A stretch of DNA of 33,888 nt from a virus (Duplodnaviria; Heunggongvirae; Uroviricota; Caudoviricetes), in the IMG/VR virus record IMGVR_UViG_2585427782_000001; one strand, given 5' to 3'. A program made the translations under genes and the position numbers. Of this stretch, positions 4,421 to 33,688 are shown piece after piece; within the stretch, counting starts at the first letter, position 1, and every line of letters begins with the position of its first letter. The notes beneath the pieces were generated by a model, which saw only the letters and a program-made list of their open reading frames with translations, made no database searches and had not been told where the DNA came from.

Positions 4421-5499
4421 CAGAACGGGTCCTCCTGTACTCTGGCTTTTTTCTTTTTCCGCGCGCCGGGGGCTTCGGGTTCAGGCAGATAAGCATCAGG
4501 CGGGCCGACACGGATTTCCGTCAGGGTGCCGTTCTGGTCCTGAGTAAACGTGACTTCCGAGACAAGCAGTTCGGTATTGTCGAAACCACAGACCGGATCG
4601 AAGACAATCACCCGCTGGTTGGGTTGCCACAGCGTACCGTTACCCTGTCGCCAGCCCTGCACCACATAGGTGGTTTCATCCGTCCGCGCCGCCCGTTGTC
4701 GGGCTTCAAAGTCCGCACGGGCAATACAGCCTGCCCCCGTAGCCTGCCCTGTCTGCCTGATATACATCGGACGGTAACGGGCAATAAATGCGTCCTCTGT
4801 GCGGGCCCGCAGCGCGGTGGTGGTGGCCTCACCGAAATCATCGTCGTTTCCGGCACGCTGCCCCGCCACCTGGTAAACAGAAAACCGCTCCCGGATACTC
4901 TTCTCCGTATCGCAGGAAAGGATGTTTTCCCCGAGTACCAGCGCAGTATGTGCCCGCGTTGAGCCAATACCGCCAATCACCAGCCTGCCGTGCGGGTCGT
5001 CGTAAGCCAGTGCCTGCTGCTGACCGAGTATTTTGTTGATTACCTCAATCACCGTTTCACCGTGATCAGGCTGGACATCAGGAATAACACCCGACGGCGC
5101 ACCGCTGTTCACCACCTCAATGCCGAAAGGCGCAGCAAGCGCCTGCGCAATCTGCACCAGCGAGCGTCCGTTAAACTGTGTCGGTTCGGCTGCACAGTCA
5201 ATCAGGTCAGCAGTCAGACTACGTCCGGCAATACCGGTGCTGACCGAACGGGCATCGTAACGAACGGGCGTCGCCTCCACCCAGCCGGTGATCACCAGCT
5301 CATCACCAATCAGCACTTCCACTTTTGAACCGTTTTTAATGCGCGGCTGAAGCGTGGTGATACCCTCATCTCCCGGCCACTGGCGGGTAATCTCCACGCT
5401 GAAATCCCGCGCCAGTCGTTCAATACCGGCACCGATGCGCACCGATGTCCAGCCATTCCACTCCCGGCCATTTACCCGTAGCGTGACATTGTCGTTCAT
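4420..5499 (-). CDS. baseplate hub / tail protein (Mu gp44, P2 gpD-like)
   Basis: 359-aa ORF following the DNA circulation-like gene; contains a lysine run near the C-terminus. Confidence 0.65.
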   Translation of the reverse strand: MNDNVTLRVNGREWNGWTSVRIGAGIERLARDFSVEITRQWPGDEGITTLQPRIKNGSKVEVLIGDELVITGWVEATPVRYDARSVSTGIAGRSLTADLIDCAAEPTQFNGRSLVQIAQALAAPFGIEVVNSGAPSGVIPDVQPDHGETVIEVINKILGQQQALAYDDPHGRLVIGGIGSTRAHTALVLGENILSCDTEKSIRERFSVYQVAGQRAGNDDDFGEATTTALRARTEDAFIARYRPMYIRQTGQATGAGCIARADFEARQRAARTDETTYVVQGWRQGNGTLWQPNQRVIVFDPVCGFDNTELLVSEVTFTQDQNGTLTEIRVGPPDAYLPEPEAPGARKKKKARVQEDPF

Positions 5500-21547: not shown

Positions 21548-22237
21548 TTAATCCAGTTTTGCAATAGTTTGCTGTGAAAATGTCGTTTTTTGTTTTGAAC
21601 GTGTTTCCGTTAAAAGCAATAAAGCTTGGCTATCAAGCTGTAGAAAAATGTGCTTCATTGCAACCCAGCGTTCAGTAAATGTCTCAGACCAGTTTTTTGA
21701 TGTCACTCCCACCAGTGATGCCAGCTCCTGGTATTCATAGGTCTTACGCCCTGCCAGCTCGTTCTTCACATCCTGTGCCGCCAGCCAGATCAACTTCTTT
21801 AAGCGTTCCAGTGTCTTACTGGCAATTTTTCTTGTACCTAACAGAGCCTTAAACTCGTTCCATGCCCACTGCGTTATGGCAACCTGATGCTCCCAGCGAA
21901 TACTTTCGCTGTAACTCCACAGCAACCACGCTTTCTGGTGTTCTTCGAGAGACAGAACCGCGCGGCGCCATGAAGATGTTGAGAACTCAACCTGGCTGAC
22001 CAGTGCAATGGATGAACCTTTTGCGTACGACTGCTTACCGGAAATCGGCGGATTATCCAGCGTAATCATCCTGCCAGTTACCTCATCCAGAATGCGCGGC
22101 TTCTTTCGTTTGTATGTACCAGTATCAAATTGAGCATGCTCCAGCCAGGCTTCAAGCTGGCCTTTCGTTACTCCGCTCAAATCAGCGGTAGCCACCATGA
22201 GTTGCTCGCGAACATACTGTAAATATTGGATATTCAT
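21548..22237 (-). CDS. late-gene antiterminator Q-like protein (not lambda Q)
   Basis: 229-aa ORF in the Q position: downstream of ylcG/rusA and directly upstream of the late terminator and lysis cassette. Sequence is unlike lambda Q; assignment is mainly positional. Confidence 0.55.
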   Translation of the reverse strand: MNIQYLQYVREQLMVATADLSGVTKGQLEAWLEHAQFDTGTYKRKKPRILDEVTGRMITLDNPPISGKQSYAKGSSIALVSQVEFSTSSWRRAVLSLEEHQKAWLLWSYSESIRWEHQVAITQWAWNEFKALLGTRKIASKTLERLKKLIWLAAQDVKNELAGRKTYEYQELASLVGVTSKNWSETFTERWVAMKHIFLQLDSQALLLLTETRSKQKTTFSQQTIAKLD

Positions 22238-23796: not shown

Positions 23797-23822
23797 GGCG
23801 GGTTGATTATTGAAAATCAAAG

Positions 23823-24626: not shown

Positions 24627-24652
24627 AAAAAACCCCTCAATCATCTGAGGGG
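24627..24652 (-). terminator. intrinsic terminator after the 66-aa ORF
   Basis: Minus-strand RNA CCCCUCA-gaugau-UGAGGGG followed by UUUUUU. Confidence 0.55.
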
Positions 24653-25023: not shown

Positions 25024-25632
25024 CTATTGCAATCTAGCCTGACGCAAATGTGGCAATACCCTGCTCCACTTATTATCCTGCCAAGGCTGGAATTTTACAT
25101 GTGCCGTTTTTCTGGCAAGGATTTCGCGCGCCTTATGTAGTATCTGGGGATATTCTTGCTCGATAGAAGTAAAGCGACCGGCTTCGCGGTGTTCCGCAAC
25201 CTGAAGAAGTGGAGTAACGTTCTGGCAGGCGGTTAACATCGTATCACTTGCTCGCCATAACCAAGCAAGTGTGCAAAGTTCGTTATCAGTGAATTGTTTT
25301 GTGATCGGGGATTGTTGAACTTCTCGATCGAGAATATCCAGAACCCAGCGGCGGAACTCTTTGGCTACAGGAGTTCGTGCAAACATTGCGATCAAATGGG
25401 CTCCGCGAAGGCTAAATACTCGAGACTCCTGCATTCCACGAGGGGTGGTCACTTTGACCACCCTTGTCATCATATCTGTAAATTCATCTGAGTGACGAGA
25501 GTAAATGCGCTGAACTGCTTTATCGTCCGCATATTCCAGAGCTAAACCAACTTCAGTGGCAGTAAGCCAAATTCTGTTATTGTGGCAAATTGGGGTAAAC
25601 GTCGTTTTGTGGAATGCTAATTGAGTAGTCAT
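25024..25632 (-). CDS. Bro-N domain protein (antirepressor-like)
   Basis: N-terminus ..LAFHKTTFTPICHNNRIWLTATEVGLALEYADDKAVQRI.. fits the recalled Bro-N pattern (F..F....IR...G..WF.A.DVA..LGY); RBS GAGGTGA upstream of the ATG. Confidence 0.55.
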   Translation of the reverse strand: MTTQLAFHKTTFTPICHNNRIWLTATEVGLALEYADDKAVQRIYSRHSDEFTDMMTRVVKVTTPRGMQESRVFSLRGAHLIAMFARTPVAKEFRRWVLDILDREVQQSPITKQFTDNELCTLAWLWRASDTMLTACQNVTPLLQVAEHREAGRFTSIEQEYPQILHKAREILARKTAHVKFQPWQDNKWSRVLPHLRQARLQ

Positions 25633-25788
25633 AGTATCACCTCATCAGGTTAACCATCACCACCAACGACGCCAATCGACTGGTGGTGAACTGTGCAAGG
25701 TTGGCGTAACCGGCTACTCAAACCCGGCGCTCCCGAAGAAGCCCTCACACAGCCCACCATAATTTGGGCGTAGCCGTGCTTAGCGCAT

Positions 25789-25809
25789 AAAAAAACCGCT
25801 TAACGCGGT
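25789..25809 (-). terminator. intrinsic terminator between the promoter-like element and the Bro-N gene
   Basis: Minus-strand RNA ACCGC-guuaa-GCGGU followed by UUUUUUU. Confidence 0.5.
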
Positions 25810-25869
25810 ATGCGTTGAGTAGTATTCCGGGACGCCAATCCCGTGTGCCGATTTTGCGGCAACGCACAG

Positions 25870-26381: not shown

Positions 26382-26729
26382 ATGACTATCAAAGCGACTG
26401 ACATAGAGATTCTTCATCGTTATGCTGAAGGGGTAATGGAACGTTCTAACCATCATGCAAAAAATGTTGGTGCAGCCGCTCTTACATTGCTAGGAGGTGT
26501 TATCTGGAAAGCCCTGCCCGGCTCAATCGAGATAAGAACTTATAACGGAAGTCTTGCAAATATGGTATGGTGGAAAAGCGAAAGTACATTAAAAAATTAT
26601 GCAATATCATACAACCATGATTCATGTGAAATTGAAATGAGAGATGGATCAGTCAAAGGTGCTGTTTTGTTTAGCATTTCCAACAAAACTACTCCAGAAA
26701 AAATATTATCACAGCTTTCTGAACTTTAA
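26382..26729 (+). CDS. hypothetical protein on the opposite strand in an AT-rich island
   Basis: 115-aa ORF convergent with P; a GC-rich hairpin (26735-26752) lies just after its stop; no recognised family. Confidence 0.4.
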   Translation: MTIKATDIEILHRYAEGVMERSNHHAKNVGAAALTLLGGVIWKALPGSIEIRTYNGSLANMVWWKSESTLKNYAISYNHDSCEIEMRDGSVKGAVLFSISNKTTPEKILSQLSEL

Positions 26730-26934: not shown

Positions 26935-27636
26935 TCATACACTGGCTCCTTTCAGTCCGAACTTAGCTTTGATTTCTGCGATCTTCGCCAGAGACTGAAC
27001 ACGATTAAGCGGTCTCCCGCCCATAACAGGAAGCTGTTTTACTGGTTCAGGTATCACCTCACCACGGTTAATTCGCGCGGTCATACAGGACAGTTCATCG
27101 GCAGCCTTGCGCCGTAATTCCGCATCAGTAAGCGCATTGGCCCGCATGTTCTGGTACAGGTTGGTAACCAGCCAGTAGTGCGCGTTTGATTTCCATGGAT
27201 AAGACTCTGCGTCCGGATACAGGCCTCGCTTCCGGCAATACTCGTAAACCATATCAACCAGCTCGCTGACGTTTGGCAGTCCGGCGATAACGGATGCTTC
27301 TTCCCGGCACCATGCAACAAACTGCCCGGGTGATGGCAGGAATGGTCGATTCTGCCGACGGGCTACGCGCATTCCTGCGTTAACCTGTTCCATTGTGGTG
27401 ATCTCGTTTTCCCGGAAAGCCAGAACCCACTGGCGGCGGATTTCGTTCAGTTCGTTCTGATCCCGGTTAGCCAGGCTCGCAGGGAAAGTTGCCAGTAACT
27501 GGCTGAACACACCGTTGATGATCTGCGCTACCTGCTGTACCTGCGGCTTTTCGTCGTACTGTTCCGGCATATTGTTGGCGAGCCGGCGCATCTGCTCACG
27601 GTCAAAGTTAACCATCTGTGCGGCGATGTTTTTCAT
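26935..27636 (-). CDS. P: replication protein P (DnaB helicase loader)
   Basis: 233-aa product near-identical to recalled lambda P (MKNIAAQMVNFDREQMRR.ANNMPEQYDEKPQVQQVAQIINGVFSQLLATFPASLANRDQNE..). Confidence 0.95.
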   Translation of the reverse strand: MKNIAAQMVNFDREQMRRLANNMPEQYDEKPQVQQVAQIINGVFSQLLATFPASLANRDQNELNEIRRQWVLAFRENEITTMEQVNAGMRVARRQNRPFLPSPGQFVAWCREEASVIAGLPNVSELVDMVYEYCRKRGLYPDAESYPWKSNAHYWLVTNLYQNMRANALTDAELRRKAADELSCMTARINRGEVIPEPVKQLPVMGGRPLNRVQSLAKIAEIKAKFGLKGASV

Positions 27637-28562
27637 AAATCCACCCCGTAAATCCAGTCAGTGTTCGTCAGGTCGAGTTTTGGTTTGCCGGCTGTCACGC
27701 CAGCCTGTTGCTTGTTTCGGTTGATTTCGAGCTGGGTCCACTTGTCGCGGAGTTTGGCCGGACTCAGCACGTTACCGGACCAGAAGTTGTCCTGGCATGC
27801 CCAGCGGAACAGCACGCACATGTCGCGGTGGTTACGTCCGTCACGTTCACGCATCAGGCGGATATCGTTAGCCCACCCTGCAAAATTCGGTTTTCTGGCT
27901 GATGGCGCGATGGTCTTCACCATGTCAAACATCCACTCTGCGGCGGTCAGGTCTTCTGCTGTCCCCCACCTGCTGCCGCTCTGAATTGCAGCATCTGGTT
28001 TCTCCACAGGAAGATCGTTTTCTGGTTGGTCAGAGGATTCGCCAGAATTCTCGGACGAAAAAGGTTTTATATTGTCTTTTGTTAGTTTGTCTTTTGTGTT
28101 TACCTGATTCGGGTAAGTGCCTTTACCTGATTTGGGTAAACTTTTCTTACCTGATTCAGGTAAATTTACCTCTTTCAGGTAAACTTTATTTTTCTTACCT
28201 GATTCGGGTAATGTTGACCATTCACTGACCACATTATTAATGCCGATATTCCGCCCGCTCTGAATAAAAATCCCACGCTTTACCAGAACACTTTTTGCAG
28301 CAGAACACTTGTGCGGCAATATCCCGGTCAACTCGGAAAGTTGCTCGTTGCTCACCCAATCCAGTTTTTTATTAAAGCCATATGTTTTGCGCATGACAGC
28401 CAGGAAGACCAGAAGCTGGTGCTGTGTTAATCCGGCCAGCATCACAGCTTCCAGCAACTCATTTGCAATGCGCGTATAACCATCATCGAGATCTGCCACA
28501 CGCGGCTCCTTTTGTGCCGCATCCGGCACTGGAAAATTGAATATCTCAGCAGTGTTTGCCAT
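27633..28562 (-). CDS. O: replication initiator O (iteron-binding)
   Basis: Start chosen at MANTAEIFNFP with GGGAGG 5-6 nt upstream; the N-terminal region ..ADLDDGYTRIANELLEA..LTQHQLLVFLAVMRKTYGFNK resembles lambda O; ori iterons lie inside the gene. The ORF track's 28652 start is an upstream in-frame codon. Confidence 0.85.
   Translation of the reverse strand: MANTAEIFNFPVPDAAQKEPRVADLDDGYTRIANELLEAVMLAGLTQHQLLVFLAVMRKTYGFNKKLDWVSNEQLSELTGILPHKCSAAKSVLVKRGIFIQSGRNIGINNVVSEWSTLPESGKKNKVYLKEVNLPESGKKSLPKSGKGTYPNQVNTKDKLTKDNIKPFSSENSGESSDQPENDLPVEKPDAAIQSGSRWGTAEDLTAAEWMFDMVKTIAPSARKPNFAGWANDIRLMRERDGRNHRDMCVLFRWACQDNFWSGNVLSPAKLRDKWTQLEINRNKQQAGVTAGKPKLDLTNTDWIYGVDL
28100..28212. repeat. origin of replication: five iterons inside the O gene, with adjacent AT-rich tract
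   Basis: ttacctgattcgggtaa (28100), ttacctgatttgggtaa (28123), ttacctgattcaggtaa (28147), ttacctctttcaggtaa (28166), ttacctgattcgggtaa (28196); each is internally palindromic (TTACC..GGTAA). AT-rich tract at about 28058-28099. Confidence 0.75.
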
Positions 28563-28648
28563 AATTCCTCCCGCAATGAGTGTGTTACGATTTGCACCTG
28601 AAAGTCGGTTCTGTTCCCGCAGACCGACTTTCGCCATTTCTGAACCTG

Positions 28649-29188
28649 TCATATTGCCCCCAGCATGGTGGTCACCATCGCCATTAATGGACCAGCCAGA
28701 TCCGGGTCCACACGAAACATCGACACAATACCTTCACTCATTTCCTTCAGTTTCTGGTGGCGTGGTGCGTTGAGAATGACAGCCTGTTTTGCCTCACTGA
28801 GTTCCTTTTCCATTTCAGCCAACCGAGTCATGAAGCTATCCTGCTCAACCAGGTAACCGCGATATTCCAGCGGTAGTACCGCCAGAATTGCCGGGGTCAG
28901 TTCACGCACGTTATTTCGGTATTTTTCAGAATCGAATTTGTTATCGAGGAAGCGGAACAGCTTCTGGCGTGCACGGCTGACATCATCAGGGAAATCGATG
29001 GTGCCGTCGCCCTGCTCCCGATACTCATTCACAATGAGTGCGGCAACGACATCCTGATTATCTACAGCCGACCAGGCGCGGACGGCATCACGGATTTTTT
29101 CGTGGCCTGGCACCTGTTTTGTTTGAGAACGATTTATCACCGCAGTCGGGCTAAATCCGCTAGTCTGTTGGTATGTAAGTGGTTGCAT
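28649..29188 (-). CDS. YdaT-like protein at the cII position
   Basis: 179-aa ORF between cro and O with RBS AAAGGAG; segment ..LTPAILAVLPLEYRGYL.. resembles my recollection of Rac YdaT; not lambda cII. Confidence 0.45.
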   Translation of the reverse strand: MQPLTYQQTSGFSPTAVINRSQTKQVPGHEKIRDAVRAWSAVDNQDVVAALIVNEYREQGDGTIDFPDDVSRARQKLFRFLDNKFDSEKYRNNVRELTPAILAVLPLEYRGYLVEQDSFMTRLAEMEKELSEAKQAVILNAPRHQKLKEMSEGIVSMFRVDPDLAGPLMAMVTTMLGAI

Positions 29189-29231
29189 AATTGACTCCTT
29201 TAGTTTGAATTGACTGTTAAGTTGATTGCTT

Positions 29232-29245
29232 ATTGTTAAAGAGCG
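29232..29245 (-). promoter_or_regulatory. boxA-like element (rrn-type) in the pR transcript downstream of cro
   Basis: Minus strand reads CGCTCTTTAACAAT, matching the recalled boxA consensus (lambda CGCTCTTA, rrn GCTCTTTAACAAT). Confidence 0.5.
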
Positions 29246-29257
29246 TGAAATGGAAAT

Positions 29258-29488: not shown

Positions 29489-29592
29489 AACAACCTCCGT
29501 GGTTAATTTGAATCAAAATTAAAACTATGGTTGTTTTTAGTCAACAACTATTTTCGTTTGATGGAATAAAACCTTGGTTGTACATTTGGACT
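29489..29592. promoter_or_regulatory. divergent pR / pRM-like promoter and operator region
   Basis: Minus strand: TTGACT-17-TAATTT then GGAGG and the cro ATG. Plus strand: TTGATG-17-TACATT ending 6 nt before the cI ATG (leaderless-like). Palindromes ttaatttgaatcaaaattaa (29503-29522) and GTTGTT-N7-AACAAC (29530-29548). Confidence 0.55.
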
Positions 29593-30330: not shown

Positions 30331-30747
30331 ATGCAACATAATATTCATAGTGATTATTTCAAGTGGTGGTGCGGAACAGTAATCATTGGAGCAATCCCTA
30401 TCTTTATTAGATTTATTGCTTATTTCATCACTAATAAAAACATAGAGCTGATCAATATAACTGAGTTGATATGTTTTGGCTTTGCCATACAAATATCCAG
30501 TATTTATTACGGAATGGGCCAACCCAGCAAGCAAACTGAAAACAATATTATTATAAACACTACCATATCGATTGTTTTCATTGTACTTTTTTCTATAATT
30601 TACATTATTGTTATGCTGGCTGATAACATCCTTAACATGAATACGACTCGCATATTAGTCGCTATTACTTGTGGTATATCCTTATACATTGGACAAAATT
30701 CAGTCAGGTGTGCTATTATCAATAACAAAGTAGTGGCGCAGGAGTAA
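30331..30747 (+). CDS. multi-helix membrane protein in the rexAB position (candidate exclusion/defence component)
   Basis: 138-aa ORF with 3-4 hydrophobic stretches (WWCGTVIIGAIPIFIRFIAYFI, ELICFGFAIQISSIYYGM, IIINTTISIVFIVLFSIIYIIVMLA, TRILVAITCGISLYIG); visibly AT-rich; directly downstream of cI on the same strand. Confidence 0.5.
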   Translation: MQHNIHSDYFKWWCGTVIIGAIPIFIRFIAYFITNKNIELINITELICFGFAIQISSIYYGMGQPSKQTENNIIINTTISIVFIVLFSIIYIIVMLADNILNMNTTRILVAITCGISLYIGQNSVRCAIINNKVVAQE

Positions 30748-30750
30748 ATT

Positions 30751-30927
30751 ATGGAGTACTTAATTACTATTTTATCCATAATAGCTGTTGTGATACCTGC
30801 TGTATTGGCATGGTTTTCAAGAAAAAACCTCAAAAATGCACAGGAAACTTTAATGCACATAGAAAGGGTCAGAAAGTCAAATAGCGATGACTTTGAAAGA
30901 AAGAAAGAACAACTTAAATATCACTAA
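30751..30927 (+). CDS. small single-helix protein (58 aa), translationally coupled
   Basis: GGAG overlaps the stop of the upstream gene, 6 nt before the ATG; MEYLITILSIIAVVIPAVLAWFSRKNLKNAQETLMHIERVRKSNSDDFERKKEQLKYH; below the ORF-track size cutoff. Confidence 0.35.
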   Translation: MEYLITILSIIAVVIPAVLAWFSRKNLKNAQETLMHIERVRKSNSDDFERKKEQLKYH

Positions 30928-30937
30928 TGGAATTGGT

Positions 30938-31837
30938 ATGCAGTTAAAAAATATCATTTATATTGATTATGAGAAGGTCTACTCTTTAAGCTCTCAATTA
31001 TTTGAGGGCGTAATTCAATCCGCGATGGAGCATAAAGAGTCTACTCTTTCAAATATAGATGCAGTCGAAATAAAGACAAAAAGTAGTTCAAGTAAAACGA
31101 GTGACACAAAAAAAATATCAACAGTGTTAAACCCTCATGATTATCATTATCTGAAATTTGAAAACGAACTTAGCAAAAGAGGAATTCTGTCTAACATAAC
31201 TTCCCCGATCGACTCGAACAAAATTAAGGCTAATTGCTTTGTTAAAATCACCTGCCCAATTCAATTTAATGACTATAATAAATTAAAAAATACCGCTAAG
31301 AATTTCTGTAAAACTAACTATGCTATTAATTTCGTTCATCGAAATGACGAATTAGAAAGTCTAGAATCGATGCTGAAATCGATAAAACCCAAATCCAATG
31401 AATTTAATATTATCAAGGCAAGACAAGCAGAAATTAAAAGTGAGCTTGATAATTTAACATCTCCAAATCAGAAAAAATTCTTTGAGCATTTGTCTTCTGT
31501 TTTAGATTACGCATATGGTGACGAAATAGAAATATCACAAAAAATGCAAGATATTAAATTCACCTCATTCTTAATCAGAGATTTTCTTAAAATCAGTCCA
31601 GAAATGTTTGTAAAGTTATATTCTCGTCGAACGACCTCTGCATTCACAGTCGTAGGGATGATAACGCGTACATCAACGTCTGAAGGTAATCAGGAATCAG
31701 AGGCTCGTGAACTAAACGGCATTCGCAGTGCAGTCTGGAATATGAATGACAGCCTTTTTGATCTGGAGTCAACATTTTGCGCCCCTGACTCTGATGAGTA
31801 TTTCATTGAGCCTATTGCTGTTTACAATGAGCTATAA
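30938..31837 (+). CDS. hypothetical soluble protein (~300 aa), third gene of the cI-downstream operon
   Basis: AT-rich, Lys/Asn/Ser-rich ORF with no nucleotide-binding or nuclease motif recognisable by eye; start could instead be the ATG at 30887 (316 aa); followed by a terminator. Confidence 0.5.
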   Translation: MQLKNIIYIDYEKVYSLSSQLFEGVIQSAMEHKESTLSNIDAVEIKTKSSSSKTSDTKKISTVLNPHDYHYLKFENELSKRGILSNITSPIDSNKIKANCFVKITCPIQFNDYNKLKNTAKNFCKTNYAINFVHRNDELESLESMLKSIKPKSNEFNIIKARQAEIKSELDNLTSPNQKKFFEHLSSVLDYAYGDEIEISQKMQDIKFTSFLIRDFLKISPEMFVKLYSRRTTSAFTVVGMITRTSTSEGNQESEARELNGIRSAVWNMNDSLFDLESTFCAPDSDEYFIEPIAVYNEL

Positions 31838-31843
31838 AAACAA

Positions 31844-31870
31844 CCCGGCCACCGTGCCGGGTTTTCTTTT
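31844..31870 (+). terminator. intrinsic terminator closing the cI-distal operon
   Basis: CCCGGC-caccgt-GCCGGG followed by TTTTCTTTT. Confidence 0.6.
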
Positions 31871-31998: not shown

Positions 31999-32041
31999 AA
32001 CAACTTTTGTTGTTGACGATAAAACAACTATAGTTTTAAAT
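31999..32041 (+). promoter_or_regulatory. pL-like promoter with overlapping palindromic operator candidates
   Basis: Perfect palindrome aacaacttttgttgtt (31999-32014) overlaps -35 TTGACG (32013-32018); 17-nt spacer; -10 TTAAAT (32036-32041); second palindrome aactatagtt (32026-32035) sits in the spacer. Confidence 0.4.
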
Positions 32042-32147
32042 GAATTCATCGCAACAACACAACGATACGGCAATCACCTGATTCACCGTTGCGATGACCG
32101 CTTAGATCCGCAGCTTGAATTTCAGCAGGCTCCGGGGAGTGCGAGGG

Positions 32148-32525
32148 GTGAAGCGGACGCGTGAACGTCGGTGTGACCAGCTGAAATCAACTCAACACTT
32201 CATACCTCAGTCGCTTCAACGAGGCGGCTTAGTTATGACAACCGGCGGCCATCCACCGCCTGAATACGCGCAGAAGTCTATATATGTTCAGCAGCCCAGC
32301 TTACGGGCAGGAGTTTTTATGGTTCATCAACATTACGGAACGCAGACCGTTAATCGCGGTGCGGTCATGCCAGGAATGCTGGTCAAACACAAAGATGGTA
32401 CCTGGACTGCATCAGCTAATTTACGCGGACGGCTATATCTGCATCGCGGCATCGAGCGCACTTATACCCGTGATTTGCTCGTGGAAGTTTTTCTCGACGG
32501 ACGCGGCAACGGCCTGAATCACTAA
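32148..32525 (+). CDS. candidate N-like antiterminator with Arg-rich N-terminus
   Basis: The ORF-track start at 32115 is a TTG. A GTG at 32148 with GGGGAG 8 nt upstream gives an N-terminus KRTRERRCDQLK, reminiscent of the lambda N arginine-rich motif (QTRRRERRAEKQ). Alternative ATG start at 32235. Confidence 0.3.
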   Translation: MKRTRERRCDQLKSTQHFIPQSLQRGGLVMTTGGHPPPEYAQKSIYVQQPSLRAGVFMVHQHYGTQTVNRGAVMPGMLVKHKDGTWTASANLRGRLYLHRGIERTYTRDLLVEVFLDGRGNGLNH

Positions 32526-32600: not shown

Positions 32601-32897
32601 ATGAACGCTTATTACATTCAGGATCGTCTTGAGGCTCAGAGCTGGGCGCGTCACTACCAGCAGATCGCCCGTGAAGAGAAAGAGGCAGAACTGGCAGACG
32701 ACATGGAAAAAGGCCTGCCTCAGCACCTGTTTGAATCGCTATGCATCGATCATTTGCAACGCCACGGGGCCAGCAAAAAAGCCATTACCCGTGCGTTTGA
32801 TGACGATGTTGAGTTTCAGGAACGCATGGCAGAACACATCCGGTACATGGTTGAAACTATTGCCCACCACCAGGTTGATATTGATTCAGAGGTATAA
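32601..32897 (+). CDS. gam: Gam (RecBCD inhibitor), short form only
   Basis: 98-aa product [60 protein letters not shown].. near-identical to recalled lambda GamS; AGGAG 8 nt upstream; an in-frame stop 13 codons upstream excludes the long form. Confidence 0.93.
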
Positions 32898-32902
32898 AAC
32901 GG

Positions 32903-33688
32903 ATGAGTACAGCACTCGCAACGCTGGCAGGGAAGCTGGCTGAACGTGTCGGCATGGATTCTGTCGACCCACAGGAACTGATCACCTCTCTTCGCCAGAC
33001 GGCATTTAAAGGTGATGCCAGCGATGCGCAGTTCATCGCATTGTTGATCGTCGCCAACCAGTACGGCCTTAATCCGTGGACGAAAGAAATTTACGCCTTC
33101 CCTGACAAGCAGAACGGCATCGTTCCGGTGGTGGGCGTTGATGGCTGGTCCCGCATCATCAATGAAAACCAGCAGTTTGATGGCATGGACTTTGAGCAGG
33201 ACAATGAATCCTGCACATGCCGGATTTACCGCAAGGACCGTAATCATCCGATCTGCGTTACCGAGTGGATGGATGAATGCCGCCGCGAACCATTCAAAAC
33301 CCGCGAAGGCAGAGAAATCACCGGACCGTGGCAGTCGCATCCCAAACGGATGTTACGGCATAAAGCCATGATTCAGTGTGCCCGTCTGGCCTTCGGATTT
33401 GCGGGTATCTATGACAAGGATGAAGCCGAGCGCATTGTCGAAAATACTGCATACACTGCAGAACGTCAGCCGGAACGCGACATCACTCCGGTTAACGATG
33501 AAACCATGCAGGAGATTAACACTCTGCTGATCGCCCTGGATAAAACATGGGATGACGACTTATTGCCGCTCTGTTCCCAGATATTTCGCCGCGACATTCG
33601 CGCATCGTCAGAACTGACACAGGCCGAAGCAGTGAAAGCTCTTGGATTCCTGAAACAGAAAGCCACTGAGCAGAAGGTGGCAGCATGA
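32903..33688 (+). CDS. bet: Bet (Red-beta single-strand annealing protein)
   Basis: 261-aa product [85 protein letters not shown].. matches recalled lambda Bet. Confidence 0.95.

Follow-up and report, generated by a model that had tools for sequence, protein, structure and literature searches.

A boxA in the cro-ydaT spacer

The window, that is, the whole stretch of 33,888 nucleotides (nt) of viral DNA analysed here, is a lambdoid prophage whose early-right operon lies on the minus strand and runs from the promoter pR through cro, a spacer, a YdaT-type analogue of CII and O-like and P-like replication genes (Table 1). The subject of this work is a boxA, an RNA element of nut sites and ribosomal RNA (rrn) operons, that lies in this spacer. 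The 69-nt interval between the cro TAA (29260-29258) and the ydaT-like ATG (29188) is exactly the region singled out by a preliminary description of the locus, and it is the sole untranslated gap of cro-ydaT-O-P, the remaining gene junctions overlapping by 4 nt. Operator-like repeats are common to pR and pL (inverted repeats I6 and I7, 95% complementary), and the YdaT-type protein has a distant match to the Protein Data Bank entry 8bt1 (E 5e-4).

The 14-mer CGCTCTTTAACAAT is present exactly once in the window, on the minus strand at 29245-29232, where it starts 12 nt past the cro stop and about 265 nt into the predicted pR transcript. With both strands of the window scanned, it is the sole match to GYTCTTTAANA, the published working consensus, and it alone gives a zero-mismatch hit to GCTCTTTAACA. 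Base composition alone would give 0.0037 occurrences of the 12-nt core GCTCTTTAACAA over the whole window and 3e-6 over the spacer; a looser shuffle test that allowed two mismatches was not discriminating, with a hit in 20 of 100 shuffles. The element is identical at 13 of 14 positions to TGCTCTTTAACAAT, which we take to be the rrn boxA. The boxA at 29245-29232 is real and beyond chance: a genuine element of consensus strength that occupies, in a lambdoid early-right operon, the place of nutR. Among the matches listed for the exact 14-mer across genomes of different species, most are rRNA operons and chance hits. In the available portion of a published genome-wide boxA list, which has prophage cII-type genes, this locus was not found (PMC5725501, supplement 3, part 2).

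The boxA itself is predicted to be mostly unpaired, with a mean unpaired probability of 0.65 for the element compared with 0.49 for its context. No boxB hairpin follows it: the next 49 nt fold at only −2.4 kcal/mol, and the 151-nt boxA context folds no better than shuffles (z = +0.84). Thus the preliminary description was right to place a boxA on the minus-strand transcript between cro and the ydaT-like gene, right in its calls of the two flanking genes, for which the family matches are given in Table 1, and right that a boxB is missing, as the folding downstream of the boxA that it had proposed, with a small stem-loop in mind, yields no stable structure. An Rfam scan gave no match at the spacer or at the pL leader. 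The segment 29287-29210 contains 27% C and 9% G and ranks third for C-minus-G among all 78-nt segments of the 8-kb pR-strand transcript; this bias resembles the signature of Rho-loading RNA and marks a putative rut-like region. The boxA core ends 33 nt before the Shine-Dalgarno sequence of the ydaT-like gene and 45 nt before its ATG. On its plus strand the spacer carries TTGACT at 29191-29196 and again at 29210-29215, the latter separated by N6 from TTGATT at 29222-29227.

Table 1. Positions of the features of the early regions in the window.
Feature	Position	Strand	Basis or remark
Predicted pR (TTGACT 29544-29539, 17 nt, TAATTT 29521-29516, start near 29509)	29509-29544	−	predicted from sequence
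cro, YdaS-type, 76 amino acids	29258-29488	−	Pfam YdaS_toxin 4e-17, P22_Cro; PHROG 35 transcriptional repressor 1.5e-27
cro-ydaT spacer, A/U-rich, C-rich, G-poor (C 15, G 6 of 69), unstructured, Rho-loading (rut)-like	29189-29257	−	
boxA RNA element CGCUCUUUAACAAU	29232-29245	−	GYTCTTTAANA consensus type; exact, unique in the window
Direct TTGAYT half-site repeats, candidate YdaT operator/pRE-like region overlapping the spacer	29191-29227	+	read from the letters
Shine-Dalgarno sequence AAGGAG of the ydaT-like gene	29195-29200	−	read from the letters; 6 nt before ATG
YdaT-type CII analogue, 179 amino acids	28649-29188	−	Pfam YdaT_toxin 4.6e-30; PHROG 163 CII-like 1e-66
O-like gene	27633-28652	−	4-nt overlap, translationally coupled to the ydaT-like gene
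P-like gene	26935-27636	−	4-nt overlap, translationally coupled to the ydaT-like gene
Terminator-like hairpin and U-run, intrinsic, end of isrK, between P and the Q-like gene	25795-25809	−	
Strong intrinsic terminator-like site (8-bp stem, 5 GC pairs, T7), between P and the Q-like gene	24633-24652	−	
Q-like gene	21548-22237		PHROG 304 at 5e-107
Predicted pL and OL (TTGACG 32013-32018, −10 near 32036-32042)	32013-32042	+	predicted
Non-coding pL leader, 270 nt, no boxA, no put element	32049-32318	+	
kil, KilR/P22-type, 68 amino acids, first conserved pL-operon gene	32319-32525	+	PHROG 294 at 1.3e-37
gam, after kil	32601-32897	+	relatives' annotation
bet, after kil	32903-33688	+	relatives' annotation

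Search for N, nutL and put

To the boxA the preliminary description had joined an Arg-rich, N-like open reading frame (ORF) of the pL operon at 32115-32525, and it had proposed antitermination either of the N type or through boxA and Nus factors only. This ORF is a composite in which the untranslated pL leader happens to be in frame with kil, its last 68 codons being Kil. The Arg-rich upstream part matches no PHROG or Pfam family, and the same library detects the true N proteins of relatives (PHROG 271, E 8e-6 to 2e-9). In a sample of 93 leader copies comprising 39 distinct variants, an in-frame TAG (32208 C>T) breaks the N-like frame in 16 of the variants, further variants have a 5-nt insertion or 1-nt deletions, and the TTG start is lost in two; the deposited phages IdasGreatGrand, PhiR68_2 and Turner are among the carriers of a broken frame. 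Substitutions lack codon periodicity upstream of 32319, and within kil 8 of 10 fall at third positions. No gene is annotated under the leader in any of the 40 records listed out of the 2223 Escherichia coli genomes that carry it, and ten different genomic contexts of this exact Cro hold no N gene, the order always being pL, KilR, Gam, RecT and exo. Given the TAG, the frameshifts, the absent codon periodicity and the lack of a family match, the ORF was rejected as a gene.

Nor does the pL leader hold the matching element for which a search had been suggested: there is no boxA with two or fewer mismatches, and the best match within 32045-32320 has 4 mismatches in 11 positions. Because the three defining features (boxB, N and nutL) all fail, N-type antitermination falls away from the original proposal, of which the boxA at the nutR position without a boxB still stands. 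The earlier interpretation was thus half right, and the element is a boxA-only remnant of a nut site.

The leader itself (32049-32318, plus strand) is 95-100% conserved and common to phages of different immunity, among which homology starts at about 32049, roughly the predicted start of the pL transcript. RNAalifold makes all common leader polymorphisms look compatible with pairing; measured against the single-sequence minimum free energy structure, 6 variants are compatible and 13 incompatible, no better than slid controls. A 15-nt string, CGCAGCTT(G/A)AATTTC, matches at 14 positions between the leader (32109-32123, plus strand) and the cro stop region (29267-29253, minus strand). In cro these letters code for the conserved Ala-Ala-stop at the C terminus, the pL copy varies between strains (32114 C/T, 16 of 39 variants), and phages resembling phage 4A7 (described below) have the leader in common with the window and not the end of cro; as a candidate for a shared pL/pR element the string was rejected, and it is probably a coincidence.

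HK022-type put RNA, which has two stems and lies just downstream of pL and of cro, was sought with a covariance model built from nine put sequences, namely HK022 putL and putR and diverged sequences from HK639, CobraSix, S9-5, phiEt88 and UPF_BP1. Controls scored 74-96 bits. Over the whole window the best score was 9.7 bits (E about 1), in neither leader, and the model found no put RNA in the N-less relatives 4A7, IdasGreatGrand, HK225 and KO-TP1 either. With these positive controls, an HK022-type put is excluded.

The boxA in related phages

Of 11 Cro homologues from other species (63-86% identity), five, from Erwinia, Xenorhabdus, Buttiauxella, Photorhabdus and Arsenophonus, are followed by a boxA 6-40 nt past the cro stop and then by GC-rich hairpins. 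These hairpins fold at −6.4 to −17.9 kcal/mol, against −2.4 kcal/mol in the window. The pL side was captured in three of the five, and all three show a nutL boxA with hairpins together with an N-like gene; the N-like ORFs of L022, L023 and L025 match PHROG 271. In the Photorhabdus relative (L023) the nutR and nutL hairpins clearly match each other (GUAUGCCGCGAGGUGUAC and CUAUGCCGCGAGGUGUAG). Because distant phages of the same Cro family thus carry the complete nutR and N arrangement, the boxA of the window is best read as a stranded nutR boxA, positionally homologous to the canonical one and left without partners as an orphan half of a nut site. We infer loss in the window's lineage as the direction of change from this distribution, and not from a reconstructed history.

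The spacer travels with cro. No boxA accompanies the homologues of the YdaT-like gene in other genera (52-71% identity), where cro usually abuts ydaT; 4A7-type phages share ydaT with the window from the ATG onward only. Among relatives without N the boxA is patchy. It is absent after cro in L015, L016, L017 and 4A7 (L014); on the pL side, L015 and L017 have the form GCTTTTTAACA, in which a critical position is altered (C4>T), and the N-less Serratia relative L018 has the identical 14-mer in its pL leader.

Two further observations concern these relatives. In the boxA-less 4A7 (4520-4545), L015, L016 and L017, a GC-rich hairpin spans the cro stop, with the stop codon in its loop (for example GCCGCC-UGACC-GGCGGC); it has no U-run and is not a canonical terminator. 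Separately, prophages of Kosakonia, Enterobacter and Serratia (L015, L017, L018 and L208) have a boxA in the pL leader and no N-like gene detected downstream of pL. About 35 nt past the boxA, the leaders of L015, L017 and L018 have a conserved TTAGACCC motif and a small hairpin, the stem of which covaries in L017 and L018 (CGCA-CAAA-UGCG and CACG-UAAA-CGUG), and the ORFs behind these leaders are not N-like by PHROG. Such leaders may form a class of their own among those with a boxA. The idea that the pL leader of the window is homologous to them and has lost its boxA by deletion was considered and dropped, as the similarity over the stretch beyond the promoter, operators and first bases was 19-20 against a null of 18 ± 2.

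Within E. coli the arrangement is common: 1515 of 5426 complete genomes (28%) contain the boxA spacer and 2223 the pL leader. Among about 90 sampled copies of the spacer there are a single variant of the boxA (A>G) and two of its flanks, and a minor lineage has a 12-nt insertion downstream of the boxA.

Comparison with known boxA systems

The closest arrangement is that of the nutR sites of lambda, P22 and phage 21, where a boxA of the same sequence class likewise lies just downstream of cro and ahead of a CII-type gene. The window, by contrast, lacks the boxB hairpin, the N gene and nutL, and it carries a strong consensus form in place of lambda's weaker CGCUCUUA. The C-rich, G-poor RNA around the boxA has its counterpart in the rutA/tR1 region of lambda, where rutA overlaps boxA. 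HK022, HK639 and HK75 are N-less lambdoid phages, as here, and their putR sits in the same gap between cro and cII, but neither the window nor its N-less relatives have a put-like sequence or structure detectable with the covariance model.

Ribosomal RNA antitermination (NusA, NusB, NusE, NusG, SuhB and S4) needs no phage protein. NusB:NusE binds rrn-type boxA at 5-8 nM, compared with 80-90 nM for the lambda nut boxA, and by analogy high-affinity NusB-S10 binding would be expected for the boxA of the window (PMC2800207). This element, however, is part of a messenger RNA, with a translated gene on either side and the promoter about 265 nt away; unlike rrn boxA, it is neither followed by a boxC-like GU-rich element nor preceded by a supported boxB hairpin.

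The consensus GYTCTTTAANA also brings Nus factors to transcripts other than rRNA, and every perfect-consensus site tested recruited Nus factors and altered expression (PMC5725501). In suhB of E. coli and Salmonella and in a Citrobacter gene for a ParE-like toxin (CKO_00699), a consensus boxA just upstream of the ORF represses translation and so leads to Rho termination; suhB-type repression holds with up to 100 nt between boxA and Shine-Dalgarno sequence, and the suhB boxA overlaps a rut site (PMC5725501). Like those of the suhB 5' untranslated region and CKO_00699, the boxA of the window is a perfect GYTCTTTAANA, less than 50 nt from a start codon and overlapping a putative pyrimidine-rich, G-poor rut region; it differs from them in lying behind a translated ORF instead of close to the promoter, and in preceding a gene that heads a phage replication operon, for which repression without relief would come at a cost.

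An opposite effect has been described for the leaders of clustered regularly interspaced short palindromic repeat (CRISPR) arrays and for an engineered array, in which boxA alone gives about 10-fold more distal transcription, with a block of Rho proposed (PMC7862264, citing Stringer 2020). The CRISPR-leader case resembles the window in being boxA-only, in a non-rRNA transcript and in horizontally acquired DNA, with a proposed anti-Rho action; those transcripts are untranslated over long distances, whereas the RNA downstream of the boxA in the window is mostly translated and tightly coupled. According to a 2025 review, the effect of boxA on Rho-dependent termination is stimulatory in some contexts and inhibitory in others (PMC12360218). 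With neither hairpin nor N, the boxA of the window has host factors as the only partners through which it could act, if it acts, and the precedents for such action point both ways, to antitermination and to repression.

Possible functions of the boxA

The reading that we tentatively favour, with somewhat less than even confidence and by analogy with these systems, is that the boxA still loads host NusB-S10 and modulates Rho at the cro-ydaT junction in the anti-Rho direction. Once RNA polymerase has passed cro, some 265 nt beyond pR, an unpaired boxA would emerge in the only untranslated stretch of the operon and would bind host NusB-S10 with an expected nanomolar affinity and without a phage factor. 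An N-independent Nus complex (NusB, S10, NusA, NusG and SuhB) could then nucleate on the elongating polymerase, cover the rut-like RNA and sequester NusG, and this would lessen Rho-dependent termination and polarity at the junction and over the poorly translated RNA beyond it, in the manner of rRNA operons and CRISPR leaders. Such an effect would be modulatory and not essential, and would on its own be insufficient for read-through of the intrinsic terminators before Q. The anti-Rho outcome is clearly preferred to its opposite because a site that promotes termination in front of the replication genes should not be tolerated by a phage that has no antiterminator.

Several observations weigh against this reading. 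Phage 4A7, deposited as a complete phage genome, has ydaT-O-P and the pL leader in common with the window, but its cro is different and neither of its early transcripts has a boxA; since a phage with the same downstream genes does without a boxA, an operon of this architecture probably does not need one. About eight more deposited phages (Lambda_4C10, D2, 1W, 3W, Perceval, PhiR30_1, PhiR68_2 and PhiR70_1) match in the same two-piece pattern, the absence of boxA being confirmed only in 4A7. Diverged ydaS-ydaT modules have no boxA and mostly no spacer, and the pL leader of the window holds no second boxA site (best match with 4 of 11 mismatches). Natural variation gives no sign of selection on the boxA: the whole spacer is near-invariant in a young lineage, so its conservation across the roughly 90 copies is uninformative and says nothing on selection. 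Two good intrinsic terminators lie between P and Q, and rrn-type complexes, which resist Rho, are not known to suppress intrinsic terminators; the passage of pR transcription through these pre-Q terminators is explained by none of the readings considered here. Finally, both tested boxA elements that lie just upstream of an ORF repressed expression and did not promote read-through (PMC5725501).

Nearly as likely as the anti-Rho model is that the boxA is an inert relic of an ancestral N-dependent nutR, one that has stayed with the cro module since the loss or replacement of boxB and N and has no measurable effect. The complete nutR and N of distant members of the Cro family would then show the ancestral state, and the patchy boxA of N-less relatives, sometimes decayed as in the pL copies of L015 and L017, where C4>T falls at a position whose mutation abolishes function, as well as its absence from 4A7, would be expected; the lineage is also too young for a neutral site to have decayed. 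On the other side, an accessible consensus boxA is expected to bind NusB-S10 at nanomolar affinity whether selected or not, a second N-less relative, the Serratia L018, keeps the identical 14-mer, and the perfect-consensus sites tested in one study all recruited Nus factors and changed expression (PMC5725501).

Repression of the suhB type, in which a Nus complex at the boxA blocks initiation of ydaT translation, breaks the coupling of transcription to translation and thereby brings about Rho termination and polarity on ydaT-O-P, is unlikely; it would make the element a brake on the CII analogue and the replication genes that is sensitive to host physiology. Both tested boxA elements upstream of ORFs work in this way, which makes it the closest experimental precedent (PMC5725501; PMC12360218), and the geometry would suit it, with the consensus core at a short distance from AAGGAG and ATG in a C-rich, G-poor stretch. 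Through the translational coupling of ydaT, O and P, control exerted at ydaT would extend to the other two genes. Against this, a phage without N cannot relieve a brake on its own replication genes, so that selection should remove a site that promotes termination; the ribosome-binding site of ydaT is strong (AAGGAG 6 nt before an ATG); and the boxA follows a translated gene, unlike the promoter-proximal 5' untranslated region of suhB.

A fourth account, which we regard as very unlikely, takes the spacer to act mainly as DNA, with a pRE-like promoter and YdaT operators on the opposite strand, so that the boxA letters would be incidental filler between a −35-like TTGATT (29222-29227) and a weak −10-like TGAAAT (29246-29251). 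The analogy is with CP-933P, whose YdaT binds the ydaS/ydaT junction, which holds the pRE equivalent, and recognises TTGATT half-sites (PMC9986795). Such half-sites are present on the plus strand of the spacer; elsewhere, a perfect copy of the CP-933P YdaT operator consensus TTGATTN6AATCAA lies at 23803-23820 (TTGATTATTGAAAATCAA; about 0.004 expected by chance) and a two-mismatch copy at 29499-29516, between pR and cro. The window's YdaT is, however, only distantly related to the CP-933P protein (E 5e-4), the natural 12-nt insertion alters the spacing of the half-sites, and the promoter hexamers are poor and were missed by a promoter scan. The exact 14-nt boxA, and the boxA at the same place in relatives, would also be left unexplained. 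A role at the DNA level is compatible with one at the RNA level.

Canonical N-type antitermination, in which an N protein of the pL operon binds boxB beside boxA and with Nus factors makes pR transcription terminator-resistant, is scarcely credible given the failures set out above, even though the boxA has the position and sequence of nutR and the leader frame includes an Arg-rich KRTRERR that superficially resembles an arginine-rich motif.

Neighbouring modules

The interval between P and Q, besides the two good pR-strand intrinsic terminators, contains a cargo gene on the opposite strand and an isrK/C4/Ant module. The cargo gene (26382-26729, plus strand; 115 amino acids; Pfam VCH_CASS14 in identical contexts) is right behind P and convergent with pR transcription. 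Immediately ahead of an Ant-type anti-repressor (25024-25632, minus strand; Bro-N/P22_AR_C; PHROG 245, 1e-54), at 25679-25861 on the minus strand, Rfam detects the antisense RNA C4 (72.7 bits) together with isrK (60.7 bits). They come with terminators and a promoter-like site (25899-25870) of their own and represent a secondary immunity module of the P1/Gifsy style, set into the nin region that separates P from Q. A minus-strand promoter-like site, TTGATT-17-CATAAT (23820-23792), overlaps the perfect operator copy at 23803-23820 and faces the nin genes and the Q-like gene; it may be a promoter under YdaT control, an analogue of paQ/pI, or an internal route to Q.

The rexAB position between cI and pL (30331-31837, plus strand) is occupied by low-GC cargo, consisting of a membrane-like ORF of 138 amino acids, an ORF of 58 amino acids and a DUF6414 protein of 316 amino acids, and a bidirectional terminator (31842-31863) follows the DUF6414 cargo. 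Relatives have an ASCH domain, GevA, HipA-like plus DUF3037, or nothing at this position, which is probably a slot for defence genes or morons expressed in the lysogen.

Discussion

N and nut of lambda are the textbook case of processive antitermination, and the put RNA of HK022 is the textbook exception. The window belongs to a third group of lambdoid phages that has neither N nor put, that is very common in E. coli and that includes members deposited as complete phage genomes. A consensus boxA beside cro does not establish N-type control.

In its boldest form, the argument would be that this N-less family of E. coli prophages uses a lone boxA as a processivity or anti-Rho signal that relies on host factors only (NusB, S10 and SuhB) or, more widely, that it has an unrecognised early antitermination device, for example in the 270-nt pL leader, of which the boxA is the pR-side component. 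We consider this distinctly unlikely. Were the first version true, rrn-style antitermination would have been adopted by a phage without a phage-encoded antiterminator.

If the boxA is functional, it would mean that a phage can rely on the host's rRNA antitermination factors alone, or else use them to brake its CII analogue and replication genes, and a phage case would be added to the recent finding that boxA regulates ordinary messenger RNAs in either direction. If it is inert, it would clearly illustrate how the exchange of modules can strand one half of a regulatory site. Either way, the question shifts to how N-less phages, so widespread in E. coli, pass the intrinsic terminators that stand between their replication genes and Q.

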